Origin: Candidatus Parcubacteria bacterium
GTDB taxonomy: Bacteria; Patescibacteriota; Minisyncoccia; Phycocordibacterales; CAIJYI01
Assembly: GCA_026395595.1 (NCBI GenBank)
Contig: JAPLYL010000003.1
Span: 12,136 to 76,135 of the forward strand
Reading direction: 5' to 3'
DNA length: 64,000 nt
Position 1 is the stretch's first letter. The number at the start of each line of letters is the position of its first letter. The position numbers and the translations under genes were made by a program. A model generated the notes under the pieces. It saw only the letters and a list, made by a program, of their open reading frames with translations. It was not told the DNA's origin and did not search any database. Below, piece by piece: positions 5,994 to 27,686 of the stretch.

Positions 5994-6029
5994 ATGAACG
6001 CAACGAACGGGTTTACGCCCGTTCGTTTT

Positions 6030-6224: not shown

Positions 6225-6319
6225 GATGTCTAAATAATAAAATAGAAAAATAAAATCAAAACATCAGTATCGTTATCGTTAATCTTTTTATTTTACTATT
6301 TTCTTATTTTTCTCTTTTT

Positions 6320-6814: not shown

Positions 6815-6842
6815 AAGCCTTTTTCTGTGGATTTCCTAAAAT

Positions 6843-7271
6843 TTGACTTTTATTGCATATTATCTTACTTTCCGCGAGGTAAAAGCGTTTGAAGAAATGA
6901 CCGGCGTGGCGCGTCTTTGTTTGTCCGTCCCCGAAGGAAACACGGTAAAAAAAGAGATGATATGCGTCGGATTTGACATAAGAAGTCTTGCGGAAAAAAA
7001 AGAAAAGATGGAGCCGATTTCTTTTCCCGTAAAGAATGGAGATAAGGAGACCTCAGAATTTTTTCGGATATTGGAGATAAGACATCGGATTACTTACAAC
7101 TACGGTAAAGGAATAATGTATTTGATTGATAATACCGACGGAGAACATCCGGACGTCAAAACAATCCCTCATGAAGATTTTGCCAGAGCGGTCAGACAAG
7201 GTATTCCGACCTCTGCCGAAATGCTGCTGTTACTTTCTCTCTCATATCTCTTTCCGCGTTACCGAATATGA
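6843..7271 (+). CDS. hypothetical protein
   Basis: 142-aa ORF, no motif. Confidence 0.35.
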   Translation: MTFIAYYLTFREVKAFEEMTGVARLCLSVPEGNTVKKEMICVGFDIRSLAEKKEKMEPISFPVKNGDKETSEFFRILEIRHRITYNYGKGIMYLIDNTDGEHPDVKTIPHEDFARAVRQGIPTSAEMLLLLSLSYLFPRYRI

Positions 7272-7379
7272 GGACATGGTTTCCGAAGAACAGATGGCGG
7301 AACTCATTGAACTCTTCTATCGCTTGGTTCCGGCTGATGCATAAAAGTTAAAGCGTTCCAATACTCTTGGGACGCTTTT

Positions 7380-7871
7380 TTGTTTTTCGTTCTTCTTGTA
7401 TACTGTAATTCTATGCACACGCTATTATTTTTCGGTTTGATGTTTTGGGTCAGTTTTTGCTTCGCAAAAATGGAAATTGAAATAGAAGGGGCGCACGGGT
7501 GGGCGGGAGATCTTCCTACGTGGCGAATATCCAAAGAACACTTTATCAGTCGAATTTTTGCCGGAGGAAGAGAACTCACCGGTTATCATCTTTGGGTGCA
7601 GCTCTTTGTTTTCTCTCTTCTTCATCTGACATACTTGTTCACCCCGTTTAATCTTGGGGTGGAACTTCAGATTTTTTCTTTCATCTTTTTCGTCTGGATT
7701 ACGGAAGACTATATGTGGTTTCTTTTGAATCCCGCGTTCGGAATCGCGAAGTTTAAAAAAGAAAATATCTGGTGGCACGAACGCCATTGGTGGAAATTTG
7801 CCCCTCGGGATTATTTTATTTTTATCCCGATTGCGATAATACTCTATATCCTTTCTTTCTTTTTGGTATAA
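7380..7871 (+). CDS. hypothetical membrane protein
   Basis: 163 aa, multiple hydrophobic segments, Trp-rich. Confidence 0.4.
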   Translation: MFFVLLVYCNSMHTLLFFGLMFWVSFCFAKMEIEIEGAHGWAGDLPTWRISKEHFISRIFAGGRELTGYHLWVQLFVFSLLHLTYLFTPFNLGVELQIFSFIFFVWITEDYMWFLLNPAFGIAKFKKENIWWHERHWWKFAPRDYFIFIPIAIILYILSFFLV

Positions 7872-7910
7872 AAATAAGGCGTTACGGCTGAGTCGTAACG
7901 CCTTGTGTTT

Positions 7911-9044
7911 TTATACGGTGATTTTATAGCCGTATTCGGTTGTTTCCACTTTCGGTTCGTGATATTCCATTCCGAAAGCATCCGCAACCGCTCGATAGGT
8001 TATCTTTCCTTGAATGATATTCACACCCTTCAAAAGCGCTTCGTTTTCCGCAACCGCACGAATCCAGCCTTTATTGGCCAACTCAAGCGCATAAAGAAGA
8101 GTAGCGTTTGTCAACGCGATTGTTGAAGTTCTTGGAAACGCGCCCGGCATATTAGCCACGCCATAGTGTACGATGCCGTCAACGATAAAGATAGGGTCTT
8201 TGTGTGTGGTCGGATGAACCGTTTCCACACAGCCACCTTGGTCAATGGCAACGTCCACGATAACCGCGCCTTGCTTCATCAGTTTTAAATCTTCGCGACG
8301 AATCAATTTTGGAGCCGCTGCGCCGGGAATGAGAACGCCACCAATCACGAGATCCGCGTCTTTGATGTGTTTCAAGATATTTTCACGATTGGAAACAAGA
8401 CTTTCCGCATTCGGCAAGATATCTCGGAGATATCGCAAACGGGGAAGTGATGAATCCAATATAACCACATTCGCGCCCATACCGAGCGCTTTTTTTGCGG
8501 CATTTAATCCGACGATGCCTCCGCCTAAAACGACGACTTTTCCGCGCGCTGTGCCAGTGACTCCGCCGAGTAAAATACCGCGTCCGCCGTAGATTTTTTC
8601 CAGATACTTCGCACCCTCATGCGTTGCCATACTGCCGGCAACTTCCGACATAGGTACGAGCAACGGAAGGGAATGATCCGGCAATTCAACGGTTTCGTAG
8701 GCGATACACGTTGCGCCAGATTTTAAATGCGCTTCAGTCAGTTCTCGGTCTGCGGCGAAATGGAAGTAGGTGAAGATTACCTGATCTTTTTTCATGCGAG
8801 GCCATTCGGGGGTAATAGGCTCCTTGACCTTGATGATCATGTCGGTGAGATCCCATACGTCTTCAACCGGCATCACATGCGCTCCAGTTTTGAGGTATTC
8901 TTCATCACTGAAACCGCTTCCGATTCCCGCACCCTTTTCTACAAAAACTTTATGACCCGCGGAAACAAGCGCTTCCACGCCGGCGGGGGTTACTCCAACC
9001 CGATTTTCATTCGTTTTAATTTCTTTCGGTACACCTATTTTCAT
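7911..9044 (-). CDS. ald: L-alanine dehydrogenase (start at internal MKIGVPKEIK; ORF track extends to 9140)
   Basis: MKIGVPKEIKTNENRVGVTPAGV N-terminus and VVVLGGGIVGLNAAKKALGMGA NAD-binding fold. Confidence 0.85.
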   Translation of the reverse strand: MKIGVPKEIKTNENRVGVTPAGVEALVSAGHKVFVEKGAGIGSGFSDEEYLKTGAHVMPVEDVWDLTDMIIKVKEPITPEWPRMKKDQVIFTYFHFAADRELTEAHLKSGATCIAYETVELPDHSLPLLVPMSEVAGSMATHEGAKYLEKIYGGRGILLGGVTGTARGKVVVLGGGIVGLNAAKKALGMGANVVILDSSLPRLRYLRDILPNAESLVSNRENILKHIKDADLVIGGVLIPGAAAPKLIRREDLKLMKQGAVIVDVAIDQGGCVETVHPTTHKDPIFIVDGIVHYGVANMPGAFPRTSTIALTNATLLYALELANKGWIRAVAENEALLKGVNIIQGKITYRAVADAFGMEYHEPKVETTEYGYKITV

Positions 9045-9144
9045 CACATCCTCCTTTTGGATAGTGAAATCAATTAAAAATTCTTTTTTCAAAAGAACGC
9101 TCTTTGACCACACGATATATCTTATTTTATAGTTTGTCAATTAT

Positions 9145-9404
9145 TCGGTCCGTGAATCCAAAAACTCTTCGTTCGTCATCCTCGCGAATGCGGGGCGACC
9201 TAATTTTGACCTAATTTTTAAGGAGCGAAGCGACTATAAAAATGGAAATACTCTTGTAGTATAATGACCGAAGCGACTATAAAAATGGAAGTACTCTTGT
9301 GGTGCTCCAGAGTATGGCTTAATGACGTGGATCCCCGTATTCGCGAGGATGACGATTTGGGGATATTTTAGTCCAAGGAAATGAGTTTTTGGATTCACAG
9401 TTCG
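9145..9404. repeat. MITE-like palindromic element: ~45-55-bp imperfect terminal inverted repeats enclosing two tandem ~40-bp direct repeats
   Basis: Left arm ggtccgtgaatccaaaaactc...cgtcatcctcgcgaatgcgggg pairs with right arm ccccgtattcgcgaggatgacg...gagtttttggattcac. Internal tandem unit is gaagcgactataaaaatggaa[a/g]tactcttgt[a/g]gt, two copies. Confidence 0.6.
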
Positions 9405-9484
9405 GTATTTTTCCACAATCGCATTATCCGATAATATGGTATTATATACTTAGCAGAGCATTATTCGTTAATTCGTTTAATTTT

Positions 9485-9547
9485 ATGGCAAAAGGACAAG
9501 ATAAAAGAAAAGAAGTGAAGAAACCGAAAAAAGGAGCGAAAAAATAA
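9485..9547 (+). CDS. candidate 20-aa highly basic peptide (MAKGQDKRKEVKKPKKGAKK)
   Basis: Short ORF immediately followed by hairpin aaaaccgcgcaagcggttttttt; no clear SD. Confidence 0.2.
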   Translation: MAKGQDKRKEVKKPKKGAKK

Positions 9548-9631
9548 TTTTGAAAAACCGCGCAAGCGGTTTTTTTATTTCTGTATCTCTTCGGAATTTG
9601 TTATTATAAAGATGAGATAAAAAATAAAAAT

Positions 9632-10240
9632 ATGGAAACCGATAATAACAATCTTCATGTTCTTTGCGAAAAGGAAATAAAGAATTTAAAAACCGAACGC
9701 GACATCTTAAAAGAATCTTATTTCCAATTAAAAGAATTGAAAGAAAAGCTGGAAGAAAGCGAACGGCGTTTCAAGAATATTTTTGATTATACTTCTGTCG
9801 GAGTTTCTGTCGTTGCTCCAGACGGGCACTGGCTGGAAGTAAATGATTCTCTCTGTAAAATTACCGGCTATTCCCGCGAAGAATTGCTTACCAAACAATT
9901 CAATAAAATTACCTATTCCGAAGATGTCGAGAAAAGCGCTGAACTGTCTCGGAAGATTTTATCAGGCGAAGTTGACCACGCCTCTTTGGAGAAAAGATAT
10001 ACTCATAAAAATGGCCACATTGTTTGGGTTAACTTAAGTATTGCTCTCGTGCGAGACGACAAGAACATCCCTTTGTATTTTGTCGTTCATACCGAAGACA
10101 TCACCAAACGCCGCGAAGCCGAAAAAGCCTTAAAAGAAAAAGTAGGCGAGCTGGAAAAAATGAACAGCTTCATGGTAGGAAGGGAAGAGAAAATGATGGA
10201 ATTGAAAAAAGAAATTGAGGAATTGAAGAAAAAGAAATAA
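9632..10240 (+). CDS. PAS-domain protein with coiled-coil flanks and no output domain
   Basis: PAS fold stretch FKNIFDYTSVGVSVVAPDGHWLEVNDSLCKITGYSREELLTKQFNKITY...KNGHIVWV; coiled-coil N- and C-termini. Confidence 0.7.
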   Translation: METDNNNLHVLCEKEIKNLKTERDILKESYFQLKELKEKLEESERRFKNIFDYTSVGVSVVAPDGHWLEVNDSLCKITGYSREELLTKQFNKITYSEDVEKSAELSRKILSGEVDHASLEKRYTHKNGHIVWVNLSIALVRDDKNIPLYFVVHTEDITKRREAEKALKEKVGELEKMNSFMVGREEKMMELKKEIEELKKKK

Positions 10241-10452
10241 TAAAGAAACAGAACCATGCCTATTTTCAGAAGAAGGAGTCCATTAAAATGATGATGCGCC
10301 TCGTGTTCTGTTTGCCAATAAAAATTTCAGCCTGCGAACCGGAATTTTTATGCAAACTTGGAGGAGTCTGTGGATAATAAATTAGCGAGCGACTCTCGTT
10401 CGCAGTATACTGAAATCAGATCGTTAATGTATAAATTTAACAAAATTATTTT

Positions 10453-10965
10453 ATGAATAAGAATTTTTATATTACCGTCGTTATCTTGCTGGCATTTGTT
10501 TTTGTCGGAAACGCAAATGTTTTTGCAGAAGCAAAGAGCGGTGAAAAGATGAGCGAACAGCACAGAAACAATGTTTCAAAAGTTGTTCAAGAACTTGAAA
10601 AGGTTGCCGGTAAAGACGCGGGTATTGGAGAAGAAGTAAAAGCCGTAGCGCAAGAAGAAAAAGATACCGTCACCAGTGTTGCTGAAAAGATGGAAAAGGC
10701 GGAAAATAGAGGAGGTTTCAAAACCTTTCTCGTCGGTTCCGATTACAAAAACTTGGGAGCGTTGAGAAGCGATCTTGTGACAACGCAAAATCATATTGAC
10801 CGCTTGACGAAAGCAATAGAAAGAGCGACAAGCACGGAAGCAAAAACAGCACTTCAGACTCAGATCAACGAACTCAAAGGAATACAGACAAAAGCGGAAA
10901 CTTTCGTTAAAGCTCAAGAAGGAAAGTTCAGTTTGTTCGGTTGGCTGATAAAACTGTTTCAGTAA
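10453..10965 (+). CDS. secreted coiled-coil protein, hypothetical
   Basis: Signal-peptide-like N-terminus MNKNFYITVVILLAFVFVGNANVFA. Confidence 0.5.
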   Translation: MNKNFYITVVILLAFVFVGNANVFAEAKSGEKMSEQHRNNVSKVVQELEKVAGKDAGIGEEVKAVAQEEKDTVTSVAEKMEKAENRGGFKTFLVGSDYKNLGALRSDLVTTQNHIDRLTKAIERATSTEAKTALQTQINELKGIQTKAETFVKAQEGKFSLFGWLIKLFQ

Positions 10966-10990
10966 TCGTTTGGCTTAACTTAAACCAAAA

Positions 10991-11020
10991 CAATCCGCCC
11001 CAAAGGCGGATTGTTTTTAT
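10991..11020 (+). terminator. rho-independent terminator
   Basis: Hairpin aatccgccccaaaggcggatt followed by gtttttatt. Confidence 0.7.
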
Positions 11021-11095
11021 TCTTTCTCATAACTCTATCCTCATCTATATCAGTGGAGATTAATGAATGACGTTAGAACCTCTTTGATTGAAATC
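10997..11095. repeat. ~95-bp intergenic repeat copy R1 (terminator-proximal module containing the TTAGAACC motif)
   Basis: Aligns at about 70% to 11892-11988 (ttttattctt...ctatatc[a/t]gtggaga...ttagaacc..tttgattgaaa). Confidence 0.5.
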
Positions 11096-11249
11096 GAGAA
11101 TAGTCTGTATTTACAAGCGATGTTAGAATTTTCAAAAACACTGAATGCGAAGGGTGTCTAGGTGAGATTCGGGGAAGAGATTAGAACCTCCAAACAAATA
11201 TACTGAAAATATCTTCCGTTGATGCTTAATAGTTGATATAATCACTGGT

Positions 11250-11801
11250 ATGGAAAATGCAAATATTTTTATAGAAAAGGAACGTCCGATGTTGGAAAAC
11301 AAAGAATTATTTTATGAAGTAATGGGTCAAAGAGTCCAAAGATTAAGAGGGAATTCTTATACCGAAATGGCGGGAGAGAACTCGTCGATGGCTCATTTTG
11401 GTGGGGTAGTTTGTAAAGTTCCCGAAGGGAAACTCATTAAAGATGCGGTGATTTATGTCAATGAAGACGATTTTTTTGTGAAAGGAGAAGATTTTACAGA
11501 CATTATTCCTGTCGTTCTCAGGCACGAGATGTTTGAACTGTGGACTTATGTAAAAAACGGCTGGTCACTTTCACCAGCCCCAAAGCGAATTGGAAATGAA
11601 AACAGGGTTAGTGTTGCACACGGCTTAGCTCTTCGGGAAGAATATAGATATGCTGTTGAAATTGGAAAAGCTGAGAGGTATTTGGAATATATAAAAAAAT
11701 GGTCACAAGAACACCCAAGAGAAAATATGGAAGGTTTTATTTCGGAAAATGAGAATGCCTATAAAAAGGTAATATCTCGAACAGGAGAAACAGACAAATA
11801 A
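11250..11801 (+). CDS. hypothetical protein
   Basis: 183-aa ORF flanked by R1/R2 repeats; followed by a terminator hairpin at 11865-11897. Confidence 0.45.
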   Translation: MENANIFIEKERPMLENKELFYEVMGQRVQRLRGNSYTEMAGENSSMAHFGGVVCKVPEGKLIKDAVIYVNEDDFFVKGEDFTDIIPVVLRHEMFELWTYVKNGWSLSPAPKRIGNENRVSVAHGLALREEYRYAVEIGKAERYLEYIKKWSQEHPRENMEGFISENENAYKKVISRTGETDK

Positions 11802-13041: not shown

Positions 13042-13881
13042 CTACGTTTTATCTTCATTATGTCCAGCTTCCAATTTTATTACGATTTCATTCATTGTAT
13101 AGTGTACAAATTGTTTTCCGAGTTCGGTTAACTCATATTTCTTATCGTCATCGAAAGCTGAGGTTGCATATCTGGTCCCGTTGCTCTTTGATTTACTGCG
13201 CTGGGGAGTCTGAAGTATTATGCTACCGTTGTAGCCACGTTCTTTGTGTTGGGTTATGACGTGCCCAGTACTCAAGTCGTGTATGAGCAGTTTAAACAAA
13301 TCCGCTTCCGCTGAATCTTCTCGAGCTGGGTCTCCGTGTATTTCTTGCCATATTTGCTGGCGAGTGCAACCTGGATTTTTATAGACTTCTCGAATAACCG
13401 CAAAATGTGCTTCAGAATAAATATCTATCCATGTTACAAACATGCGCACAACATCATCACTACATATTTGAGATGAGGCAGAATTTGATAAAAGGTTGCG
13501 CACTAATTTTCTTTTTTCCTCACTTTCTGCAGCCGACCAGTCTCGGAAACATTTTTTTACTATTTTTAGATATTCTGGACTTTCCAAACGTTCACGTATT
13601 TTATCGTCTGTTTGGTCTAGTCGAGTTAAAACTTCAAAAATAGTTTGTCCAATTTCCTTCATCTCATCCTCCTGTAGTTTAAGCCAGCTTCCAAATATAT
13701 TGTTAAACCTTTTTTGTTCTTGTTCTGACCAACTTGCGCCTATACCACCAATGGCTCCACCCGCAAAAGGGACAGAGCTTAAACAAGCTAATGCAAATCG
13801 AGCGACTTTTGGTCCCGCGCCACTTTTTAACGCGTCATCAAGCTGTATTCTCAGCTCGTCTTTTTTTTGATTTTCGTCCAT
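13042..13881 (-). CDS. hypothetical protein, second gene of the lexA-divergent operon
   Basis: 279-aa ORF; 2-nt gap to the upstream gene. Confidence 0.5.
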   Translation of the reverse strand: MDENQKKDELRIQLDDALKSGAGPKVARFALACLSSVPFAGGAIGGIGASWSEQEQKRFNNIFGSWLKLQEDEMKEIGQTIFEVLTRLDQTDDKIRERLESPEYLKIVKKCFRDWSAAESEEKRKLVRNLLSNSASSQICSDDVVRMFVTWIDIYSEAHFAVIREVYKNPGCTRQQIWQEIHGDPAREDSAEADLFKLLIHDLSTGHVITQHKERGYNGSIILQTPQRSKSKSNGTRYATSAFDDDKKYELTELGKQFVHYTMNEIVIKLEAGHNEDKT

Positions 13882-13883
13882 AC

Positions 13884-14528
13884 CTACGTTTCAATAGTTA
13901 TTCCAAGTTTTGCTGATAAACTATTTAGACGTTCTCCGTCTCCCGAAATCTTCTTTTTCCTGTCGTTAATAAAATTAGATAATTCTGATTTAATTTTAGA
14001 ATGTCCTTCTTGAATATCTTTGTTTACCCAACTTATCCAATCTAACAAGTGCTTTTTTTGCGAAGTAACAGCGTTTGATACCCCCGTGTCGTCATGAGCA
14101 AATCCATAGCCTTTAATGTCTACAGAAAATGAAACATAATCATTATGCCAATCAAGGCTTTCTGGAGACCAACTGAATGTGCGGGTTGAAGGGTCAAGAG
14201 TTTTAATTATTTCTAGTGTATCGTTTGTGATTAAGGGGAGAACAATTTCAAGTGACTCATATTCCCATTCTTTATCTCCATCAGATTGATAAAAATCATC
14301 CCTCATGTGGGTGGGCACAATCCTCATTTCTTTTTTGAGTCGCATTATTTCTTTTCGATCAGTGTCAAACTCAATAGGGAGGAGAACATCTTCTGATGTT
14401 AAAAGCTCCTCTAGAAATTCCTCTGTGGTTTTATTGAGAATTTTTTCGTTAGGGCTAATTTGTATTTGTTTTTCCAGAGCACTTAAGAGTGCACGATAAT
14501 AATCTGAAATTGATGGTTTGTTAAACAT
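13884..14528 (-). CDS. hypothetical protein, first gene of the lexA-divergent operon
   Basis: 214-aa ORF, acidic, no motif. Confidence 0.5.
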   Translation of the reverse strand: MFNKPSISDYYRALLSALEKQIQISPNEKILNKTTEEFLEELLTSEDVLLPIEFDTDRKEIMRLKKEMRIVPTHMRDDFYQSDGDKEWEYESLEIVLPLITNDTLEIIKTLDPSTRTFSWSPESLDWHNDYVSFSVDIKGYGFAHDDTGVSNAVTSQKKHLLDWISWVNKDIQEGHSKIKSELSNFINDRKKKISGDGERLNSLSAKLGITIET

Positions 14529-17425: not shown

Positions 17426-18211
17426 TTAAACCTTTGTAAAAATCACAAAAGCAGTCTTTCGGGGCTGCTTTTTTTATTGTAAAATTTTACATTTTCGTAA
17501 AAACATAATACTATAAAGTTACAACTTAATATCGTTGACCTAAACCAGCGCTTCGGTGCTGGCATGGTTGAAAATCGTTAGGCAAGAATCGGGGTCAGGT
17601 ACTCATTCTTTTTTAAATCTGTGGTGTAGTATTTTTTGATGGACGACGGACGGCGCACGGGGAATTGTGTGCTTCGCACGCTATTTTACGGGGATATCTT
17701 CCCTTACAGGGACGGTACATGTTTCGTATCTCACTTCGCCTGCGGGCTCGTTATGATATACTCAACATCTTCGATTCCCCACGGAAGACAAGCAGTTGTC
17801 TTCCTCCATCTCCACCGAAAATTTACAAACAAAAAATGCCAGTTTGCAAACTGGCATTTTTTGTGTAAATTTTGGTGGACATACTGTCGGAGGGGTGGAA
17901 CCGCCTTGAGGAGTTTGTTTTTAGGGCTTATGCGATGGTAAAAGGAGTACAAACAACGTAAAAGTACTGAAATCATCGGCTTATTTACTCACACACTGTG
18001 AATGGAACAAAGGCAGGGACGCGTCAAACAACAAAAAAACAAGAAAACGGAAACCTCGCAATTTTGTGGAATTTAATATATAATGAAGCGTATCAGGGGG
18101 GTTAAATTATCGCTGGAATTTTGTAATATTTCAGCACGATTCAGCGTAAGATGGTCGTGCTCGCTACTGATAATAACCGATATTTTTTCAAAACGGAAAC
18201 GAAGCCAAATA

Positions 18212-18382
18212 ATGAGTTTTGTTAAGAATAAGGACAGTAAGATCGAGGTCAAATTTCGAAAAATATTATGGGCACTCGGTTTTCAATACCGCAAACACCC
18301 AAAAGGCTATTTTGGAAAACCTGATGTGGTCTTAAAAAAATATAAAACTGTATTTTTTGTCGATCCTGGTTCAATCATCTAA
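18212..18382 (+). pseudogene. vsr: Vsr-like very-short-patch-repair endonuclease remnant (N-terminal ~56 aa only; catalytic His cluster missing)
   Basis: SKIEVKFRKILWALGFQYRKHPKGYFGKPDVVLKKYKTVFFVD aligns to the Vsr N-terminal half (GxPD retained). The ORF stops before the FVDGCFWH motif; the next gene starts 13 nt later. Confidence 0.5.
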
Positions 18383-18394
18383 AACTTTAATATT

Positions 18395-21103
18395 ATGAAT
18401 AAACCATGTTTGGTGCTTACTCAATCGAGAGAAGAAAGCGGGTATAACGATTTTATCGGGCGTTTTTATCATTTTCCAGAAAAATATCTTGGTCAATTCA
18501 AGGAACTTCCTGCGGAATTTGTTTATTACGAGCCGACAAAAAGCGGGGATGGAGTATATTTCGGATACGGAAGGATAGAAAATCAGCCGACAGCAGACAA
18601 ACGAGAGGACGGACATTATTTTGTAGAGATTTCAGATTATAAGCCTTTTGCAAAACCAGTTCCGTTTAAAAACGAGACCGGGATTATACGAGAAGCGGAC
18701 TCGCCTCATTATAATGCGCAAAATGCGGTACGGAAACTGCCAACACTAACTCTGGATGAAATTTGTCTCGATGGGAAAGTTCGTCTTAATTTCAAGGCGG
18801 ATGCTCACCTCATCAAGGTACTCGGAGAACAACTCATTGCTTCGGAGAAGGTCGGGATACTCGAACTTATTAAAAACGCATACGATGCGGGAGCATCATA
18901 TTGCAGGGTTAGAATCGAAAATATTCCTGGTATGTTGCCCGCGCCGGAAAGCGAATGCTTGTTTCCTGAACTCTCCGGACCAGTAATCATAATTGATGAC
19001 GATGGTTATGGAATGACTCGTTCGGTCATTGAAGACGGCTGGCTGCGACCAGCATCCACTATCAAAACAACGGTGAAAGAAACGATGCGAAAAGAAAGAG
19101 AGAAGGCCGCCGCCTCGGGAAGACTCGGTTCTTATGATAAGCTGATCGACGAAATTAAAAAGGAACGCGGGGGAAGAATACCGTTGGGCGAAAAAGGCGT
19201 TGGCCGGTTTGCTTCGCACCGTCTGGGAAAACGTCTTTTGTTAACGACAAAAACCCGTGATCTTGACTACGAGTATGTGCTCGACATAGATTGGGATCAG
19301 TTTGACAGCGATGATGGTGCGGTTAAAAATCTTGACGCTGTCGGCATAAACTTATACCGCCAAAAGCCATCAAGGAACTATGGAAAGAAAGGGTCCGGAA
19401 CTCAGCTTGTGATACACGGTGGGCGTAAAGGTTTTTCTTGGGAACCGGAAACGGTTGGTGATTTACAAAGATCCATCTCCAGTTTGAATTCCCCTCAGGT
19501 TGTACAAAAACCGGATATGGAATTGCCGTTTAAGGCGTTTTTGGAATGTCCGCAAATAGGATACACAAAGAATGATGCCGAAACACTTACTTTTCCCCCC
19601 ATCTTTTCATTTGACGGACAAATCGATGAAAACGGAATTTTGAAATATACGCTAAAATTTACCCCGCCCAAGTCGGTACCGATGTCGCCCGAAACGACGG
19701 AAGACAAAAACTTTGATCTGAGGAAGGCCAAACCGGAACACTGGAAGAAAACGGAAACGGAAGAAGGTTTTCGAAAACCTGAATCCGGCCCTTTCCGGTT
19801 GCACGTGGATGCATGGTACAGAACCGGTCCGTGGATTGTGGGACCCGAGGTGGATTCGTTTACAAAACGACTTGACGACTTTGGCGGAGTATCGATTTTC
19901 AGAGACGGAATCAATGTTTTCCCCGCGGAATGGGGTGCGGAAACGGATTGGCTTGATTTGTCGACAAGACACATTAAACGGGGACGTCATCTTTCCTACT
20001 ACAACATAATCGGTAATCTGGAAATCAACCAAGAGAATAATATTAATCTCATTGATAAGACAGACCGCGAAGGGTTAATCAAAAACAAAGCGTATAACGA
20101 TTTGGTGCTCCTCACACGGGCGGCCATACTCAATATCCTCGAAATATCTTTTGAAGGAAAGCGCGACCAATATAGCAAATTAATCGGTGAGGTGGTACGA
20201 GACCCCGCTGCATTAAAAAATTATGCAAAACAAGGATCGTCTCTCATTTCATCGATTAAAGAAAAGTACCCGTTCGAACAGGATCCCTATGATATTCTCG
20301 ATTCTGTTGGTAAACCCGCAGAGCGTGGAGAAAATCTCGTTAATCTTTCAACGTCGCTTAAAAACCTTCAGAAGAGTCTTGATCTTATGAAAGAGTCTCA
20401 AGAAATGCTCACCGAACAAGCGGGTTATGGATTGGCTGTCGCCGTTTCAGTACACGAGATTGCGAAGATCGCCGCAAATTTCTATACGGGGGTGTCTCAA
20501 CTTTTGAAGTCCGATCGACAGGATGCCGACAAACTTCGAAATCTCAAAGACGCATCGGCCTCCTTGCAGTCGGAACTTAAACGGCTCAGTCCTCTTCGGG
20601 CTGTTCGTACCGAGGCGCGTACCGAATTCCCAATAACGAAACCGATCAATTTTGCCGTTGAGGTCTTTCGATCCAGATTCGAAAAAATGGGGGTGGAAGT
20701 AAAAGTTAATACCAAAGAACAATTTTCCGTATATGGCAGATACGGCGCATTTGCTCAAGTCTTTTCGAATTTATTTGATAACAGTTGCTATTGGTTAGAG
20801 TCGATGCCGCGCAAAAACAGAAAAATTGAAGTCCTCATAGATGCAAAGCATAGAACGATAACAGTCGCCGATTCGGGTCCGGGTATCGCTGAGGTGATTT
20901 TGCCGTACATTTTCGAGCAGGGCTACAGTTTGAAAATTCCACCAAGCGGTCTCGGCTTATATATCTGCAAACATTATATGCATAGTATGAGGGGAGATAT
21001 TTACCTGACGTTGGACAGAGAAAGAATAAACGAACTTTCTGGGGCGCAATTTACTCTGGATTTGGGAAAGGTCGAATCAGAACGTCCGATAGCAAAGAAA
21101 TAA
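18395..21103 (+). CDS. 902-aa multidomain protein: N-terminal unknown domain, GHKL/MORC-like ATPase, C-terminal histidine-kinase core (DHp-like plus HATPase_c)
   Basis: N-box ELIKNAYDAGAS, G1 IIIDDDGYGM and G2 GEKGVGRFASHRLG. C-terminal candidate H-box VSVHEIAKIA followed by ITVADSGPGIAEV...GLGLYICKHYMHSMRGDIYL. Confidence 0.7.
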   Translation: MNKPCLVLTQSREESGYNDFIGRFYHFPEKYLGQFKELPAEFVYYEPTKSGDGVYFGYGRIENQPTADKREDGHYFVEISDYKPFAKPVPFKNETGIIREADSPHYNAQNAVRKLPTLTLDEICLDGKVRLNFKADAHLIKVLGEQLIASEKVGILELIKNAYDAGASYCRVRIENIPGMLPAPESECLFPELSGPVIIIDDDGYGMTRSVIEDGWLRPASTIKTTVKETMRKEREKAAASGRLGSYDKLIDEIKKERGGRIPLGEKGVGRFASHRLGKRLLLTTKTRDLDYEYVLDIDWDQFDSDDGAVKNLDAVGINLYRQKPSRNYGKKGSGTQLVIHGGRKGFSWEPETVGDLQRSISSLNSPQVVQKPDMELPFKAFLECPQIGYTKNDAETLTFPPIFSFDGQIDENGILKYTLKFTPPKSVPMSPETTEDKNFDLRKAKPEHWKKTETEEGFRKPESGPFRLHVDAWYRTGPWIVGPEVDSFTKRLDDFGGVSIFRDGINVFPAEWGAETDWLDLSTRHIKRGRHLSYYNIIGNLEINQENNINLIDKTDREGLIKNKAYNDLVLLTRAAILNILEISFEGKRDQYSKLIGEVVRDPAALKNYAKQGSSLISSIKEKYPFEQDPYDILDSVGKPAERGENLVNLSTSLKNLQKSLDLMKESQEMLTEQAGYGLAVAVSVHEIAKIAANFYTGVSQLLKSDRQDADKLRNLKDASASLQSELKRLSPLRAVRTEARTEFPITKPINFAVEVFRSRFEKMGVEVKVNTKEQFSVYGRYGAFAQVFSNLFDNSCYWLESMPRKNRKIEVLIDAKHRTITVADSGPGIAEVILPYIFEQGYSLKIPPSGLGLYICKHYMHSMRGDIYLTLDRERINELSGAQFTLDLGKVESERPIAKK

Positions 21104-21107
21104 AATC

Positions 21108-22541
21108 ATGCGCTATTCCGTTTGCATTATCGATGATGAAATACCTGTTGCCGGAGTTGAAGGTTTTCGGGATACCGAATTGCTTAATTCGTCAAATCTC
21201 GGGCAGCTACTGCGACAAAATGAGCATCCTTGGACAGATGAAGTGGTAAAGCACTTCGTTCAAACGTTGTTGGAGGAAAAGGAGGATGACGGCACTTCGA
21301 AATGGGATGTATATGCTTTTACAAATCCCGCGCTTTATATCAACCATTTGGAAAACGGAACGTTTCGCCCCGATCTCTTGGTTTTTGATTGGGATTATTC
21401 CACCGGAGGTGTTGATTCCGAAGCACGTCTGAAGGAAATCCTCGAAAGAACCTTTTGTCTCGTGTTTGTCTTTTCAAAAGCCGACAGAGAAGACGAAATA
21501 AACGCCATTTTGAGCACACCGGAGTTTTTGGAATATCAAGGTCGGGTGAGTTATCTCAAAAAAGGCGATCCGGCTGCGGACAATGTCAATACTCTTTTGG
21601 AAAAAGCGAATGAAATGGATAAGAACAATTTTTCTTTTAAGTTTGCTGGCAGGTTACGGCGCGAGTCTTTGAAAATCATGGATAGAACTTTGTCCGATCT
21701 TGGTAAAGCGACAGTCAGTGATATTAAAAATTATCTTGCCTTGGAGGACGGAGAAGAAAAGCATGGGCTTATTGACTTTATTGCTGATCGCTTTCGGTCA
21801 GGTCTTGTTGAAACGGATTTTCCTGAATTGACTGAGGCGTACACCACACCCGCAACAACGGGTACAGGAGGGATTGATAATAACCTCGTAAAAAAGATAT
21901 GGGCATATCGACTTTATCGACCCCTTGATGGAACAGTCTCTTTGGCAAATGAACTTGTGCGTCGCGGAGATATTATCAAATACGAAGACAACCATTACCT
22001 TGTTGTATCAGCGGCTTGTGATTTAAAAAGATTTTGGAAAAAAAATTTCGGAACAATAAATTTGCTCCCGCTTCATAGACTTCATAACTCGAATACGGAG
22101 TTAAAAGATTTGCTGAGTTTTTGTTTGGACCCCGAAAATGTCTCAAAAAAATTAAAGACCGGAAAATTTCAAAATCTTACTGGAAGGTTGGGTGATCTTC
22201 CAGACGGTCCGTTCATTTTGCCGTTCTTGAAAGAGAACGACAACTACGAATGTTTCGTCGTACTTCCAAAAGAAATGTCTGGGCATAAAATTCCTGTTCA
22301 TCGAGACGTTTCTGCATTAGAATTAGATAAAAGAAAGGAAGCTTCTCTAAAATATGAGTGGTTGGGAGCGGAAAAGTTGTGTTCGGTATCTGAGCCATTC
22401 CTATCTGCCATAATTCAGCATACGTTTGGGACTATCGGCGGGTATGGAACCCCAGACTACCCTAAGGAGATGAAAAAAATCTTTGAGGAAATTTTAGATG
22501 AGTTCACCGCTGCTATTCCAGCGGAAAGAATACAAACATGA
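21108..22541 (+). CDS. 477-aa protein with degenerate receiver-like N-terminus and uncharacterised C-terminal domain
   Basis: SVCIIDDE (beta1 acidic pair), RPDLLVFDWDY (candidate phospho-Asp), CLVFVFSKAD (Thr/Ser position), VSYLKKG (Lys). Start 4 nt after the upstream stop; ATGA overlap with dcm. Confidence 0.45.
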   Translation: MRYSVCIIDDEIPVAGVEGFRDTELLNSSNLGQLLRQNEHPWTDEVVKHFVQTLLEEKEDDGTSKWDVYAFTNPALYINHLENGTFRPDLLVFDWDYSTGGVDSEARLKEILERTFCLVFVFSKADREDEINAILSTPEFLEYQGRVSYLKKGDPAADNVNTLLEKANEMDKNNFSFKFAGRLRRESLKIMDRTLSDLGKATVSDIKNYLALEDGEEKHGLIDFIADRFRSGLVETDFPELTEAYTTPATTGTGGIDNNLVKKIWAYRLYRPLDGTVSLANELVRRGDIIKYEDNHYLVVSAACDLKRFWKKNFGTINLLPLHRLHNSNTELKDLLSFCLDPENVSKKLKTGKFQNLTGRLGDLPDGPFILPFLKENDNYECFVVLPKEMSGHKIPVHRDVSALELDKRKEASLKYEWLGAEKLCSVSEPFLSAIIQHTFGTIGGYGTPDYPKEMKKIFEEILDEFTAAIPAERIQT

Positions 22542-23578
22542 AAAAATTCAACGCAATAGATTTGTTTTCCGGATGCGGCGGTTTAACACAGGGATTAAAA
22601 ACCGCCGGATTTGAGGTGCTTGCAGCTTTTGATAATGATGACGACTCAATAGCGGCATATCGGTTAAATCACCCGGAAGCCGTTATTTTCGAGGGCGACA
22701 TCCGCAAAGTACAAACGGCGGACGTTAAGAAATTATTGAAGGGAGAGCCCTTGCATCTTTTAGCTGGTTGCCCGCCTTGCCAGGGTTTTTCCTCTATGCG
22801 ACGGCGCAATAATAAAAGAACCAAAAACGATTCTCGAAACAACCTGATTTTGGAATATCTGCGATTTGTGAAAGAACTCGAACCGCTAACGATCATGATG
22901 GAAAATGTTCCCGGTCTGAAAAATTATCATTTGTTTCAGTACACAATGCGCGAATTGCAAAAACTCGGATATAATCCGAAATATCAAGCTGTTAAGATTC
23001 AAGAATACGGAATTCCGCAGCGGCGCAAGCGTCTCGTTGTCGTCGGTTCGTTGCTTGGCGATATTAATATTGCTGGCCCGACAATGGAAAAAATGACGGT
23101 TCGAGATATGATCGGTCACATAGAATCGGTTGCTGAAACGAAAGACCCGATTCATAAAATCGTCGCGTCGCATACACCGGAAGTGATGAAGCGCATAAAA
23201 GCCACTCCCAAAAATGGTGGGAGTCGTTCGGATCTTCCCAAAAAATACGAACTCGAGTGCCACAAAGAAGAAGGGGTGGGGTTTAATGACGTTTACGGTC
23301 GCTTGCGGTGGGACGATTATTCAACGACAATGACTGGCGGTTGTTTAAATCCCTCCAAGGGTCGTTTCTTGCACCCGGAAGAAAATAGAGCGATCACGGC
23401 AAGAGAAGCGGCACTTTTGCAAACTTTTCCTAAGGACTACAAATTTCCGGACCGTATTTCAAAAACTTCAATCTCGTTGTTGATAGGCAACGCCCTTCCG
23501 CCGAAATTCAGCCACATTCAATCAACCAATATTTTGGAACACCTAAAAGAATTTGAGATCAAAAATAAAACGCACTAA
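22538..23578 (+). CDS. dcm: DNA (cytosine-5)-methyltransferase
   Basis: Motif I FSGCGG, motif IV GCPPCQGFS, motif VI ENVPGL, motif VIII QRRKR, motif X GNALPP. Confidence 0.9.
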   Translation: MKKFNAIDLFSGCGGLTQGLKTAGFEVLAAFDNDDDSIAAYRLNHPEAVIFEGDIRKVQTADVKKLLKGEPLHLLAGCPPCQGFSSMRRRNNKRTKNDSRNNLILEYLRFVKELEPLTIMMENVPGLKNYHLFQYTMRELQKLGYNPKYQAVKIQEYGIPQRRKRLVVVGSLLGDINIAGPTMEKMTVRDMIGHIESVAETKDPIHKIVASHTPEVMKRIKATPKNGGSRSDLPKKYELECHKEEGVGFNDVYGRLRWDDYSTTMTGGCLNPSKGRFLHPEENRAITAREAALLQTFPKDYKFPDRISKTSISLLIGNALPPKFSHIQSTNILEHLKEFEIKNKTH

Positions 23579-23593: not shown

Positions 23594-23790
23594 AAAAAAC
23601 CACACAAACCGCACACTGCAAATGGTTCCAGACGATACGAAAAAACGTGAAAATGGCACAAACGGCACACCCAACGCATTCATTATATCCAGCTTTTACG
23701 TCGAAATGACACAAACGACACACGAAACCGCACAAACCTCACACAGAAAATGGCTTATTATTGTGAAAATGCCACAAATGCCACACTCAC
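23594..23790. repeat. iteron-like array of five ~21-bp units, each a duplicated half-site xCACAAAy-xCACAC with covarying x
   Basis: Units at about 23596, 23650, 23703, 23724 and 23765 (GGCACAAACGGCACAC, GACACAAACGACACAC, GCCACAAATGCCACAC and so on). Start-to-start spacing is 54, 53, 21 and 41 bp, roughly whole helical turns. Confidence 0.55.
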
Positions 23791-25655: not shown

Positions 25656-27257
25656 ATGTTAGATGGTGATAAAAAAGAAATCGCGCTTATCTACTGTCGA
25701 GTTTCTTCTGAACGGCAAAAAAATGATGGTCATGGTCTTGATGGGCAGGAACATCGTTGCCGGATCCATGCGGAAGATCAAGGGTATGAAGTTGAAAAAA
25801 TTTTCAGAGATAGTTTCAGTGGGGCGGGAGATTTTATGCAACGTCCCGCGATGGCAGAAATGATAAACTACATGGATAAGAACGCACATAAAAAGTATGT
25901 GGTGATTTTTGACGACCTTTCTCGTTTTGCCAGAGATACAGTATTTCATCTCAAACTGGCGTCGGCGTTTAAGGTGCGCGGGGCGCGACGCGAATGTCTC
26001 AATTTTAACTTTGATGATTCTCCGGAAGGGGAATTTGCTGAAACGATCGTAGCCGCTTCAAACGCTCTTGACCGGCAGAAAAACCGTCGTCAGGTTATCC
26101 AGAAGCAAAAAGCGCGTCTAGAAAAAGGATACTGGCCATTCTTCCCGCCACCGGGATATAAGCATATAAAAGATCCGGTTCACGGAAAACTTTTGACCCC
26201 GGAGGAACCCAAGGCAAGTATCATAAGGGAGGCGTTTGAAGGCTTTGCCAATGGACGTTTTTTGACACAAACAGACGTTATGAAGTTTCTCAGGGAAAAA
26301 GATTTTTGTGACGGAAAACCAACGCATCTTTTTTATGTAAAAAGATTGCTGGTTCGAGCCGTTTATTCAGGATACATAGAGTATCCCGACTGGGGCGTTT
26401 CGAGAATGCTCGGACATCATAAACCAATTGTTGATCCGGAAGTATGGGGACAAGTTCAGAAAAAACTCTCGGAAAAAGCCCCGATACGGACGAGAAAGGA
26501 CTATAGCTGTATCTTATCTCTTCGCGGATATGCTTGTTGTGCTTATTGCGGTGAACCAATGACAGGAAGCGAGAGCACGGGACGGCACGGAAATAAATTC
26601 GCTTACTATCGTTGTCGAAACAGAAATTGCTCGCATCGAACCAAAAGCATAAAGAAAAAAGACCTTGAGGATGAATTCTGCCGGATTCTTGGTAATACAC
26701 AACCGAAAAAGAATATCATCACATTAGCAAGGGCGATCATCGAAGATGTTTATTCGAAAAGACAAAATTCCTCTGGTGAGCTGTTCAGTCGAACGGAAAA
26801 ACAGATCGCAAAGATTGACGAAGAAATGAAGGCTCTCGGCTTACTGGCAGGGAGGTCGAAAAAAGAAAGCGCCATCACTTTGTACGAAGAGCAGATCGAC
26901 GATTTAAGCAAAAAGAAAAAGGAACTGGAGAAAAAGAGAGACTCTACGGCTTCCGGTCCTGTGAGTGTTGGAACCGCTTTTGACGAAGTGATGAAATATC
27001 TGAATGATCCAGTAAATATGTGGGTTAATGGTGATCCAAACGACAAAAGACGAGTGCAAGCACTCGTCTTTGAGGAAAACTTCGTATACGATCGGAAAAA
27101 CGGTGTTGGAACCGCCAAAGTGTCAGTCCTGTACGAGTTTTTTGAGCGAACTCGCGACCGCGAGTTGCAGGATGTGGAGATGGGGGGAATCGAACCCCCG
27201 TGCAAAAAGGAACTCTCGTTACTTTGTACAAACGTATTCTGTTTATTTTTTGTTTGA
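25656..27257 (+). CDS. large serine recombinase (resolvase/invertase catalytic domain, recombinase domain, zinc ribbon, coiled coil)
   Basis: N-terminus ALIYCRVSSERQKNDGHGLDGQ holds the catalytic Ser motif. Zn ribbon CCAYCGEPMTGS...YYRCRNRNC. C-terminal codons run into the tRNA-like repeat. Confidence 0.9.
   Translation: MLDGDKKEIALIYCRVSSERQKNDGHGLDGQEHRCRIHAEDQGYEVEKIFRDSFSGAGDFMQRPAMAEMINYMDKNAHKKYVVIFDDLSRFARDTVFHLKLASAFKVRGARRECLNFNFDDSPEGEFAETIVAASNALDRQKNRRQVIQKQKARLEKGYWPFFPPPGYKHIKDPVHGKLLTPEEPKASIIREAFEGFANGRFLTQTDVMKFLREKDFCDGKPTHLFYVKRLLVRAVYSGYIEYPDWGVSRMLGHHKPIVDPEVWGQVQKKLSEKAPIRTRKDYSCILSLRGYACCAYCGEPMTGSESTGRHGNKFAYYRCRNRNCSHRTKSIKKKDLEDEFCRILGNTQPKKNIITLARAIIEDVYSKRQNSSGELFSRTEKQIAKIDEEMKALGLLAGRSKKESAITLYEEQIDDLSKKKKELEKKRDSTASGPVSVGTAFDEVMKYLNDPVNMWVNGDPNDKRRVQALVFEENFVYDRKNGVGTAKVSVLYEFFERTRDRELQDVEMGGIEPPCKKELSLLCTNVFCLFFV
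27172..27200 (-). other. tRNA 3'-fragment-like sequence (T-arm GGGGGTTCGATTCCCCC plus acceptor 3' strand), no 5' half
   Basis: Minus strand reads gggggttcgattccccccatctccaca. No complementary 5' acceptor strand within 100 nt. Equals the right inverted repeat of the 17770-27200 segment. Confidence 0.55.
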
Positions 27258-27686
27258 GCTTGAAAAGTTTGAAACAGACAAAATCTTTACAAGCCGAGCT
27301 TCCTTTATTTTGAAAATACGCCAAAACGCTCATATTTTCTATCCTGAAGTTTATTACACTGATATTTTCCTAACAGGATTCAGAATATATCAATGCCGAA
27401 TTTACGCTAAAGCGAATTCCGGAGCAAAGGAGAAATATGGTGAAACCATACCCTTTACTTTTGAAGATAAGTTTGCACTTATTCTTTTTTCCTGCACACG
27501 ATAACGGACGAGCAGGAGTAGCCGGTTTGAGTAAACGAGAGAGCGGCTTATTGTCTAGGCCGATCATCCCCATATATTTGTCTTTCAAAGGACTCCTCTA
27601 TTATACTCCAATGCCTTGGTACTTGTCAAATATCATTTTGCGTGCTACTCTCATCTCGGATAAGTTATTTGAAGAGGGAAAAAAGA

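Follow-up and report, generated by a model that had tools for sequence, protein, structure and literature searches.

A divergent HK-like/RR-like cassette with a C5 cytosine methyltransferase in a Candidatus Parcubacteria genome

The 64,000-nucleotide stretch of Candidatus Parcubacteria DNA analysed here (the window) carries a real, tightly packed cassette of a known but uncharacterised kind. It is a divergent, Patescibacteria-borne form of the HK-like/RR-like cassette with a C5 cytosine methyltransferase (C5-MTase) and usually Vsr that was predicted in 2021. A sequence-only reading of this DNA had proposed a defence operon linking DNA modification to two-component-like proteins, and had held that no described system pairs a GHKL-plus-HK protein and a receiver-like effector with an m5C methyltransferase. 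The operon exists and is of interest, yet it is not undescribed, since the accessible part of Bellieny-Rabelo, Pretorius & Moleleki (2021, Genome Biol Evol; PMC8011034) reports such an HK-like/RR-like pair associated with a C5-MTase. Other parts of that reading hold: the GHKL/HK protein, the receiver, Dcm, and the conserved trio of genes are borne out, and a modification-linked, two-component-like conflict system is still the best reading. The preferred model, to which a probability of about 50% is given, has m5C as the self-mark, a GHKL-kinase as the sensor, and phosphotransfer switching on a toxin-fold effector.

Layout and conservation of the cassette

Four genes on the + strand, each present in the ORF list, make up the cassette: a vsr remnant (positions 18083-18382, 99 aa), an HK-like gene encoding a GHKL-ATPase/histidine-kinase fusion (18395-21103, 902 aa), an RR-like gene encoding a receiver with a predicted toxin-fold domain (21108-22541, 477 aa), and an intact dcm encoding a C5 cytosine DNA methyltransferase (22538-23578, 346 aa). 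Read directly from the sequence, the HK-like/RR-like junction is TAA-AATC-ATG at 21101-21110, a 4-nt gap, and the RR-like and dcm genes share an ATGA overlap at 22538-22541; the gap and the overlap indicate that the genes are translationally coupled. The tight, co-directional packing claimed earlier therefore stands, and each of the motif strings quoted with it was found in the translations of the 902-aa and 477-aa proteins. The three core genes (HK-like, RR-like, and dcm) look intact here, and the accessory vsr is a remnant.

Gene order was compared across 24 fetched loci and judged in those that are complete. Every complete locus keeps the order HK-like, RR-like, dcm, with vsr before or after, and because the same order recurs in all of them the arrangement is not due to chance. 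These loci come from at least six phyla (Patescibacteria, Zixibacteria, Acidobacteriota, Chloroflexota, Aminicenantes, and Bacteroidota), so the trio is conserved as a unit across genomes. The HK-like and RR-like genes are adjacent in every complete locus and dcm is directly next in most; it lies 1-1.5 kb downstream of the pair in L010 and L012. Some loci show decay of the cassette: L018 has no dcm and a fragmented HK-like gene, and L022 is frameshifted.

Vsr repairs the T:G mismatches created by m5C deamination in Dcm-Vsr pairs. The window copy retains the N-terminal half only: its Vsr-homologous part spans 18173-18364 (+ strand), the Pfam Vsr family (PF03852) matches the 99-aa ORF at E 9e-24 over profile positions 1-63 of 74 only, and the NCBIfam Vsr score of 55 bits falls below the cut-off of 97.85. 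Compared with the Vsr proteins of L001, L006, and L008, the remnant runs to ...KTVFFVD, continues as PGSII and stops, just 5' of the CFWHGC segment of intact homologues; a tblastn search of the window matched Vsr residues 1-64 only and found the second half nowhere else. The sequence-only reading was right that vsr is truncated, everything after ...FFVD being lost, but not that an insertion truncated it. Intact vsr genes stand at the equivalent upstream site in six other loci (L001, L006, L008, L009, L011, and L024), which rules out a cut made by insertion of the cassette. In L004, L017, L019, and L020 an intact vsr stands just 3' of dcm. Because intact copies occur upstream of the HK-like gene or just after dcm, vsr is a member of the cassette, although a variable one. 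It was found in about two thirds of the fetched loci and is dispensable, since L010, L012, L014, and L015 are otherwise intact without it.

The 346-aa protein is a bona fide C5-MTase with all motifs, as had been proposed. Its match to DNA_methylase (PF00145; E 2.4e-57) is nearly full length (profile positions 1-314 of 324), TIGR00675 scores 156.8 bits (above its cut-off of 100.65), and the PDB catalytic domain of DNMT1 is matched at E 8.5e-36.

Domains of the HK-like and RR-like proteins

The 902-aa protein is 100% identical to P0221, from a Candidatus Parcubacteria MAG, which NCBI names "sensor histidine kinase." Its architecture is HATPase_c_3, a DHp-like H-box (His687-Glu688), and HATPase_c, so that Pfam and NCBIfam domains and conserved motifs agree on the GHKL-plus-HK hybrid first read from its motifs. 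These motifs start at residues 157 (ELIKNAYDAGAS), 201 (DDDGYGM), and 265 (GEKGVGRFAS), and at the kinase end at 684 (VSVHEIAKIA), 826 (DSGPGI), and 852 (GLGLYI). The N-terminal domain of about 130 aa (18395..18790, + strand) is highly conserved, with 37 invariant columns in 15 homologues; it has no sequence relative in the PDB, and its sole match is to EVE, at E 0.13 in 2 of the 15 homologues. Residues 153-317 (18851..19345, + strand) form a MORC/MutL-type GHKL ATPase domain (HATPase_c_3, PF13589, E 6.6e-13), in which E157, N161, D164, and the GEKGVGRFAS lid are kept in all 15 homologues. In MORC/paraMORC proteins an S5-fold transducer domain follows the GHKL domain. Region 140-680 gave no match in a PDB-sequence profile search, and the sole hint of such a domain is the sequence IFRDGINV at residue 501, which would resemble the FVNGR of MutL.

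The DHp-like H-box region (residues 679-735; 20429..20599, + strand) has H687 and E688 invariant in 15 of 15 homologues and weakly matches HEF_HK (PF19191) at the expected place (E 0.0036); its 18.2 bits fall short of the gathering score, 24.1. The HK-like protein of L001 gave the same sub-threshold result, that of L004 no match, and precomputed PF19191 matches were found in 0 of the 120 homologues listed. The histidine-kinase CA domain (HATPase_c, PF02518, E 2.2e-14; residues 786-890; 20750..21064, + strand) conserves the N box NLFDN, D826xGxG, and G852LGLY and matches the PhoQ CA domain in the PDB at E 1.7e-6, and NCBIfam HK models align to residues 654-890, with a start at about 654. Precomputed HATPase_c_3 and HATPase_c domains occur together throughout the 120 listed homologues, with the single exception of a truncated match of 697 aa.

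The N-terminal part of the 477-aa protein (residues 1-172; 21108..21623, + strand) is a receiver (REC) domain with the acidic pair D9/D10, the phospho-acceptor D94, S123, K152, and a (beta-alpha)5 fold. The strings CIIDDE, DLLVFDWDY, VFVFSKAD, and YLKKG are all present, and fold and conserved catalytic residues together bear out the receiver-like N-terminus proposed earlier. Response_reg_2 (PF19192) has no match in the window protein, matches 30 of 44 close homologues weakly (E<=1, best 1e-6), and matches 5 of 37 members of the wider family at E<=1e-3. Residues 173-255 (21624..21872, + strand) form a helical linker, judged from the secondary structure of the model, and this is the most variable part of the protein (mean identity 0.40, compared with 0.51 for REC).

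The sequence-only reading had left about 300 aa of this protein without a known motif, a stretch now divided between the linker and a C-terminal domain (residues 256-470; 21873..22517, + strand) that is, as modelled, a MazF/CcdB-like SH3-like barrel with large insertions. The likeness is at the level of fold only: hhalign against MazF/Kid was not significant (probability 1%), the PemK_toxin and CcdB Pfam families gave no match at E<=10, and a PDB profile search gave nothing relevant. Conserved residues are R268, R285-x-G287-D288, C304, Y416, P430-F431, and G447. In secondary-structure register only, the equivalents of the catalytic Arg and Thr of MazF appear not to be conserved and an invariant Cys304 and the R-x-G-D are found instead, so RNase chemistry is not implied; the same register leaves no more than a tight turn for the beta1-beta2 loop and shows different residues (H/Y/N/F/L) at the "PLH" position. 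The domain is confined to this architecture, with 251 cluster representatives of 1.84 billion. Because no restriction-nuclease fold is recognised in the three assigned parts of the RR-like protein or detected in the HK-like protein, whose matched domains lie outside residues 1-150 and about 320-680, the RR-like protein is probably the output of the system.

Relation to described systems

The closest relatives are the HEF_HK/Response_reg_2 pairs (PF19191, PF19192). In the accessible text of PMC8011034, an HK-like protein (HATPase_c_3 + HEF_HK + HATPase_c) and an RR-like protein (Response_reg_2) show a linkage of 91.6% in 644 regions, with R-M, C5-MTase, and Vsr enriched. As far as that text goes, the window shares with them a soluble "group 1" HK-like protein (N-terminal HATPase_c_3, His-Glu H-box, and C-terminal HATPase_c), an adjacent RR-like protein about 450-500 aa long that opens with a receiver domain and carries no other annotation in its C-terminal part, close linkage to a C5-MTase, and Vsr in many cases. 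The window clade is, however, divergent, with PF19191 below threshold and PF19192 unmatched in the window protein, and its order is (vsr)-HK-RR-dcm, whereas in the accessible part of the survey the methylase mostly precedes the RR-like gene and vsr follows it. That part names none of the phyla Patescibacteria, Zixibacteria, Acidobacteriota, Chloroflexota, and Aminicenantes, and it gives no known domain for the RR-like C-terminus, for which a MazF/CcdB fold is predicted here.

Like Detocs (HK-Hpt-REC-effector), the cassette pairs a histidine kinase with a receiver whose fused effector is non-transcriptional, apparently for conflict and not for gene regulation. Unlike Detocs, it has no Hpt, as the earlier reading had stated and as the lack of any Hpt ORF at the locus agrees with; its predicted effector is MazF-fold and not a nucleosidase, its sensor is a GHKL/MORC-like ATPase, and it has its own DNA methyltransferase. 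Detocs models in PADLOC gave no match in the cassette. PADLOC returned only PDC-M43B (E 0.0065, on the CA domain of the HK-like protein) and nothing for the 477-aa protein, apart from the generic MTase models DruM, DrmMII, and MTase_II, which match Dcm. Signature genes of BREX (PglZ/BrxC), DISARM (DrmA/B), and Druantia (DruA-E) were not among the PADLOC results.

The modelled C-terminal barrel has an RGDI-type motif on strand 1, as do the MazF/PemK/Kid, CcdB, and ToxN/CptN toxins, but has no significant sequence similarity to them and, because of its insertions, is about twice their size. It differs from MazF/CcdB toxins in its invariant Cys304, apparently without conserved equivalents of the MazF catalytic Arg/Thr, and in having no antitoxin gene (no small ORF up- or downstream is conserved within the cassette); the fused receiver presumably takes the inhibitory role of the antitoxin.

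GHKL paraMORCs have been described in R-M operons with Dcm and Vsr, and nuclease partners were proposed for them (Iyer, Abhiman & Aravind 2008; PMC2292703). The window protein resembles MORCs and paraMORCs in its N-terminal HATPase_c_3 with intact ATP-binding motifs and in sharing an operon with Dcm and Vsr on mobile islands of the R-M-like type, but its ATPase is fused to a complete histidine-kinase core and its partner is a receiver protein, not a helicase or restriction-fold nuclease. Classical Dcm-Vsr and Type II m5C R-M systems share a bona fide C5-MTase, Vsr in most loci, and horizontal mobility; in contrast, the cassette has no recognisable restriction endonuclease and has two signalling-type proteins in the "R" position.

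Proposed working and its alternatives

In the preferred model, Dcm, whose enzyme family is established, would methylate a specific cytosine motif in host DNA and thereby mark it as self. The soluble 902-aa sensor may engage DNA or another infection cue through its N-terminal domain and MutL/MORC-type GHKL ATPase, which its sequence places in the same polypeptide as the DHp-like helix with His687 and the kinase CA domain, so that the two would be coupled. Once activated, the HK-like protein would autophosphorylate and pass the phosphoryl group to Asp94 of the RR-like receiver, the residues needed for this being conserved. Phosphorylation may then free the modelled MazF/CcdB-fold domain, whose toxin-like attack on nucleic acid or on some target in the host would stop the invader or the infected cell. 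In favour of this model are the self-contained character of the cassette (conserved gene order, translational coupling, and a C-terminal domain confined to this architecture), the conflict-system neighbours (Type III R-M in L001; Fic, HaeII R-M, and a reverse transcriptase in L024; a serine integrase and tmRNA in the window), and the reports of PMC8011034 and PMC2292703. Against it count the fold-only link to MazF, the sub-threshold HEF_HK match and absent Response_reg_2 match of the window proteins, and the stretches of the HK-like protein without a domain match, which could hide a nuclease. The cue for the sensor, and gating of the sensor by methylation, are pure conjecture, and no experimental test of any cassette member was found in the literature searched.

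If this model is true, bacteria link DNA-methylation self-recognition to a toxin-type effector by His-Asp phosphotransfer, which would form a bridge among R-M, MORC-like chromatin ATPases, two-component signalling, and toxin-antitoxin folds. A more specific version is possible but doubtful: a self-contained immune system whose R arm is a phosphorelay and not a DNA endonuclease, with the ATPase reading methylation or foreignness and the kinase signalling through the receiver to a MazF-fold toxin with novel Cys-dependent chemistry. Epigenetic self/non-self discrimination would then be coupled directly to an abortive-infection effector, even in minimal Patescibacteria genomes. The accessible part of the 2021 description leaves the output domain blank, and the fold assignment offers experimenters a concrete hypothesis, covering whether the domain is toxic on its own, whether its target is RNA or DNA, and what Cys304, Asp94, and His687 do.

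It is unlikely that the two proteins are instead a disguised ATP-dependent restriction enzyme, a two-subunit endonuclease cutting unmethylated DNA in which either the MazF-fold domain or some part of the 902-aa protein without a domain match supplies a new kind of DNase or DNA-binding module and the His-Asp pair is an allosteric switch, not a suicide trigger. The layout of M, "R," and Vsr is that of classical m5C R-M, translation of dcm is coupled to that of the RR-like gene, D281, R285, and D288 are conserved in the C-terminal domain, and the ligands of MazF are single-stranded nucleic acids, a DNA substrate analogue among them (PDB 5cr2 is one of the fold matches). The nuclease partners proposed for paraMORCs point the same way, and the large stretches of the 902-aa protein without a domain match (residues 1-150 and about 320-680) could hide a nuclease. 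However, PD-(D/E)xK, HNH, GIY-YIG, and PLD were found as fold or motif in neither protein, the C-terminal domain has no PD-(D/E)xK fold, and Pfam, NCBIfam, and PADLOC gave no nuclease family in either the HK-like protein, where domains were matched outside those two stretches only, or the RR-like protein. To our knowledge, all characterised proteins of the MazF/CcdB fold are RNases or gyrase poisons and none is a DNase.

A regulatory two-component system, in which the pair responds to a signal inside the cell and governs the expression or activity of Dcm or of a neighbouring R-M system, with the barrel as a nucleic-acid-binding output, is quite improbable. Signalling that controls R-M is the role put forward, as speculation, in the accessible text of PMC8011034, and other R-M systems are often neighbours (Type III R-M in L001; HaeII R-M with Fic and a reverse transcriptase in L024); but the window and L004 have no other R-M beside the cassette to regulate, its own dcm being the only constant partner, and neither an HTH nor any other output domain known to bind DNA is present.

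There is similarly little chance that the window copy is a decaying relic without current function. Its vsr is down to the N-terminal half, decay is seen elsewhere in L018 and L022, and its RR-like protein has Ala at position 303, which is Asp in 41 of 44 close homologues. The three core ORFs are nevertheless full length with every catalytic and phospho-relay residue intact, residue 303 varies freely across the wider family, and vsr is dispensable.

Selfish addiction through post-segregational killing is very unlikely. On this reading methylation would be diluted in cells that lose the cassette, which would trigger the sensor-kinase and let the toxin-fold effector kill them; the element would be stabilised in this way, and phage defence would not be its primary role. 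In favour are the toxin fold, the wide lateral transfer across phyla, the location on an integrative island whose serine integrase lies at tmRNA, and the addiction behaviour established for Type II R-M (as cited in the accessible text of PMC8011034). Against it, no plasmid copies of the cassette were found, and sequence data cannot separate addiction from defence, both of which could be true.

With this copy, carried by a small, putatively integrative island of a Parcubacteria MAG, the family now reaches ultra-small, host-dependent bacteria. The right edge of the putative island is a large serine recombinase of the phage-integrase type (25656..27257, + strand; Pfam Resolvase, Recombinase, and Zn_ribbon_recom), which matches the phrog_95 integrase at E 3e-70. 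A tmRNA gene (27172..27571, - strand; ARAGORN; Rfam RF00023, 114.7 bits) is the likely integration site, because the 3' end of the gene adjoins the recombinase ORF and runs into it.

Composition and conservation of the cassette

Four co-directional ORFs on the forward strand form the cassette: a vsr remnant of 99 aa (18083-18382), the HK-like gene (902 aa, 18395-21103), the RR-like gene (477 aa, 21108-22541), and dcm (346 aa, 22538-23578). The ORF list gives exactly the coordinates of the sequence-only reading, and the peptide motifs it quoted are all found in the translations. The junctions it described can be read from the DNA: a 4-nt gap between the HK-like and RR-like genes (TAA-AATC-ATG) and an ATGA stop/start overlap between the RR-like gene and dcm. 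The observation of a tightly packed four-gene cassette is confirmed.

Conservation as a unit was examined from contigs encoding two homologues, by a genome-collection scan, and by tblastn searches of all 24 loci fetched from other genomes (L001-L024) with the four cassette proteins, and all agree. The order HK-like, RR-like, Dcm is kept in every complete locus; these come from Patescibacteria (including Uhrbacteria), Zixibacteria, Acidobacteriota/Terriglobia, Anaerolineales/Chloroflexia, Aminicenantes, and Bacteroidota (Leeuwenhoekiella, Saprospiraceae, and Ravibacter), with one further IMG/VR contig. The trio is tightly translationally coupled and conserved across phyla. By tblastn, identity across loci is 53-70% for the HK-like protein and 58-80% for Dcm in most loci (41-44% in L010 and L012), while the RR-like protein is much less conserved (29-49%). 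Degraded copies in L018 (Tunturiibacter lichenicola; HK fragmented, no dcm) and L022 (a Terriglobia MAG; RR-like gene and dcm frameshifted) indicate that the cassette is evidently often lost through decay. A tblastn search of plasmids for further copies found nothing significant.

The Vsr match (PF03852, E 9e-24) covers only profile positions 1-63 of 74; the ORF ends directly after ...KTVFFVD, where intact homologues continue with the CFWHGC segment, and tblastn found no second half elsewhere in the window. The truncation had been attributed to an insertion, but an intact vsr recurs in cassette loci, either directly upstream (L001, L006, L008, L009, L011, L021, and L024) or directly after dcm (L004, L017, L019, and L020), and is absent from others (L010, L012, L014, and L015). 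This distribution makes vsr a dispensable cassette member and not a bystander gene interrupted by insertion. Dcm is full length with all motifs present (DNA_methylase PF00145, E 2.4e-57) and is by sequence an intact m5C methyltransferase. Among solved structures, eukaryotic DNMT1 catalytic domains are closest in sequence (E 8.5e-36) and outrank the bacterial enzymes M.HaeIII (1e-22) and M.HhaI (2e-14).

The kinase-like and receiver-like proteins

The HK-like protein matches HATPase_c_3 at residues 153-317 (E 6.6e-13) and HATPase_c at residues 786-890 (E 2.2e-14) in Pfam, and NCBIfam histidine-kinase models span residues 654-890. In 15 homologues drawn from the loci, the GHKL motifs are kept (E157, N161, D164, the D/E-x-D-G-x-G-M segment, and the GEKGVGRFAS lid), His687-Glu688 is invariant, and the N box, D826xGxG, and G852LGLY of the CA domain are retained. 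Judged by these residues, the protein is a soluble fusion of a GHKL ATPase and a histidine kinase with every predicted ATP-binding and phospho-His residue. A PDB profile search found no sequence relative for region 140-680 and none for the first approximately 130 residues (18395-18790, forward strand), which are strikingly conserved, with 37 invariant columns. This N-terminal domain is beta-rich, with the motifs YNDF.G.FYHFP, EFVYYEP, YFGYG, and YFVEI.DYKPF. It could be assigned to no family, its sole match being to EVE (E 0.13, in two of the fifteen sequences), a faint EVE/PUA-like hint; if it is a modified-base reader, the domain would be the methylation sensor.

The RR-like protein has no significant match in Pfam, NCBIfam, PADLOC, or PHROGs. 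The earlier description of its N-terminus as receiver-like is nevertheless correct, since the receiver residues are conserved (the acidic pair D9/D10, the phospho-acceptor D94, S/T123, and K152) and D94 is still invariant in a family-wide alignment reaching down to 22% identity; every residue predicted for phospho-Asp chemistry is present. Within the protein, variation is greatest in the linker. Residues 252-470 were modelled separately (pLDDT 89.7, pTM 0.83), and in a Foldseek search with this model approximately 30 MazF chains head the ranking (probability 1.0, target-normalised TM 0.56-0.65), so the C-terminal domain is modelled with a MazF/CcdB fold. It has no Pfam match at E<=10, and in hhalign comparison with three MazF/Kid sequences only the RGDI motif aligned, without significance. 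Judged by secondary-structure register, the family does not conserve the positions of the catalytic Arg and Thr of MazF; the residues invariant throughout it are C304, R268, R285-x-G287-D288, Y416, P430-F431, and G447. A profile of the domain found 251 cluster representatives in 1.84 billion proteins, and because practically all are proteins of 430-520 aa with the domain C-terminal, or fragments, the domain is exclusive to the RR-like architecture. The MazF/CcdB-fold assignment is the one new element of the present analysis and turns what had been called an unknown effector into a testable hypothesis.

Two other ideas about the domain were set aside. A PD-(D/E)xK core was suspected at "GDII...VVSAACDLK," but the model fits MazF/CcdB barrels and no restriction fold. 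Position 303 is Ala in the window copy and Asp in 41 of 44 close homologues, which raised the suspicion of a dead effector; however, this position is freely variable family-wide and only C304 is invariant there.

Relation to described families and proposed mechanism

The sequence-only reading held that no described system combines these parts, which is wrong, because Bellieny-Rabelo, Pretorius & Moleleki (2021; PMC8011034), in work that began from Pectobacterium, defined both families: the HK-like one (HATPase_c_3, HEF_HK PF19191, and HATPase_c) and the RR-like one (Response_reg_2 PF19192). The accessible text reports that the pair shows 91.6% linkage across 644 regions from 628 strains, that R-M domains are over-represented, with C5-MTases prominent, and that Vsr occurs in 20 genera; it connects the HK-like proteins with the paraMORCs described by Iyer et al. 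2008 (PMC2292703) and gives no known domain for the rest of the RR-like protein. In the literature searched, just two further papers name these Pfam families, and one of them states that PF19191 lacks the T/N phosphatase motif. A 2026 DefensePredictor figure legend includes a system with HATPase and REC domains that is predicted and unvalidated. MADS (bioRxiv 10.1101/2023.03.30.534895) was considered as the identity and rejected: it has an N6-MTase, and a histidine kinase only as a flanking marker gene.

Neither window protein reaches the Pfam threshold of these families. PF19191 matches exactly on the H-box region (residues 679-735) with 18.2 bits (E 0.0036), short of its gathering score of 24.1, and none of the best 120 HK-like homologues has a precomputed PF19191; PF19192 is weakly detected in 30 of 44 close homologues (best 1e-6) and 5 of 37 family-wide. 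By these profile scores the window clade is divergent within its kind, and the locus is a divergent Patescibacteria member, in a putative tmRNA-associated island, of a kind that is computationally known but experimentally untouched. The earlier interpretation thus stands for its domain calls, for the receiver, and for a conserved unit linked to modification, and falls for novelty and the origin of the vsr truncation.

In the mechanism we favour, Dcm would mark self DNA, and the N-terminal domain together with the MORC/MutL-like ATPase would detect DNA that is foreign or unmethylated, or some other cue of infection. Sensing would lead to autophosphorylation at His687 and transfer to Asp94; the phosphorylated receiver would free the toxin-fold domain, which may then damage nucleic acid or a host target and so abort the infection or the cell. 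We give this explanation as a whole a probability of about 0.5, its identity part being close to certain and its mechanistic chain much less so. That the cassette is instead a disguised ATP-dependent restriction enzyme is unlikely, and no restriction-nuclease fold is recognisable in the assignable parts of the HK-like and RR-like proteins. A purely regulatory two-component system is somewhat less probable still; the purely computational PMC8011034 speculates, in its accessible text, that the pair regulates R-M systems. Just as improbable, and compatible with the main model, is a decaying relic in this genome, a reading weakened because all core residues are intact in the cassette proteins and A303 is no longer anomalous once the alignment is widened. 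An addiction module, also compatible with the methylase-kinase-receiver-toxin model, is quite doubtful.

Genomic setting and the putative island

Neighbours of the cassette are typical of defence islands: L001 has a Type III R-M, and L024 has Fic, a reverse transcriptase, and an R-M of HaeII type. The latter (positions 1-11700 of IMG/VR UViG_3300025012_001675, a contig classified as viral) has the order Fic, M.HaeII-like Dcm, R.HaeII (PF09554, E 2e-130), Vsr, HK-like, RR-like, and Dcm, followed by the reverse transcriptase on the opposite strand; one vsr is common to two m5C systems.

Downstream of the cassette, the window carries a LOOT RNA and two unknown ORFs, then a large serine integrase of phage type (25656-27257, forward strand; phrog_95, E 3e-70). 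The last approximately 85 nt of the integrase ORF overlap the 3' end of the tmRNA gene ssrA (27172-27571, reverse strand; Rfam 114.7 bits), and this overlap beside the cassette points to a probable integrative island at ssrA, roughly 9.5 kb long. The C-terminal "GGIEPP..." of the integrase ORF is read-through of the tmRNA T-arm region. No att-like direct repeats of at least 14 nt were found flanking the putative island, as expected for a serine integrase, so repeats do not place its left boundary. A prolyl-oligopeptidase gene and the vsr remnant are separated by 650 nt of non-coding DNA, which contain two strong terminator-like hairpins on the forward strand (17447-17472 and 17829-17864); their stems of 11 and 16 bp precede T runs, and the second hairpin could be the left edge.

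The LOOT RNA motif (RF03000, 23961-24079, forward strand) scores 73.4 bits, above its gathering score of 46.4, and comes shortly after dcm, ahead of the next ORF. The intergenic region after dcm also carries five irregularly spaced doublets of the 9-nt unit AAACNNCAC (23597-23785), which may serve as iterons for a binding protein or as an operator array. Upstream of lexA are two unannotated ORFs on the reverse strand (13042-13881 and 13884-14528), the first with a weak, sub-threshold match to Abi_alpha (E 7e-4, 20 bits against 29).
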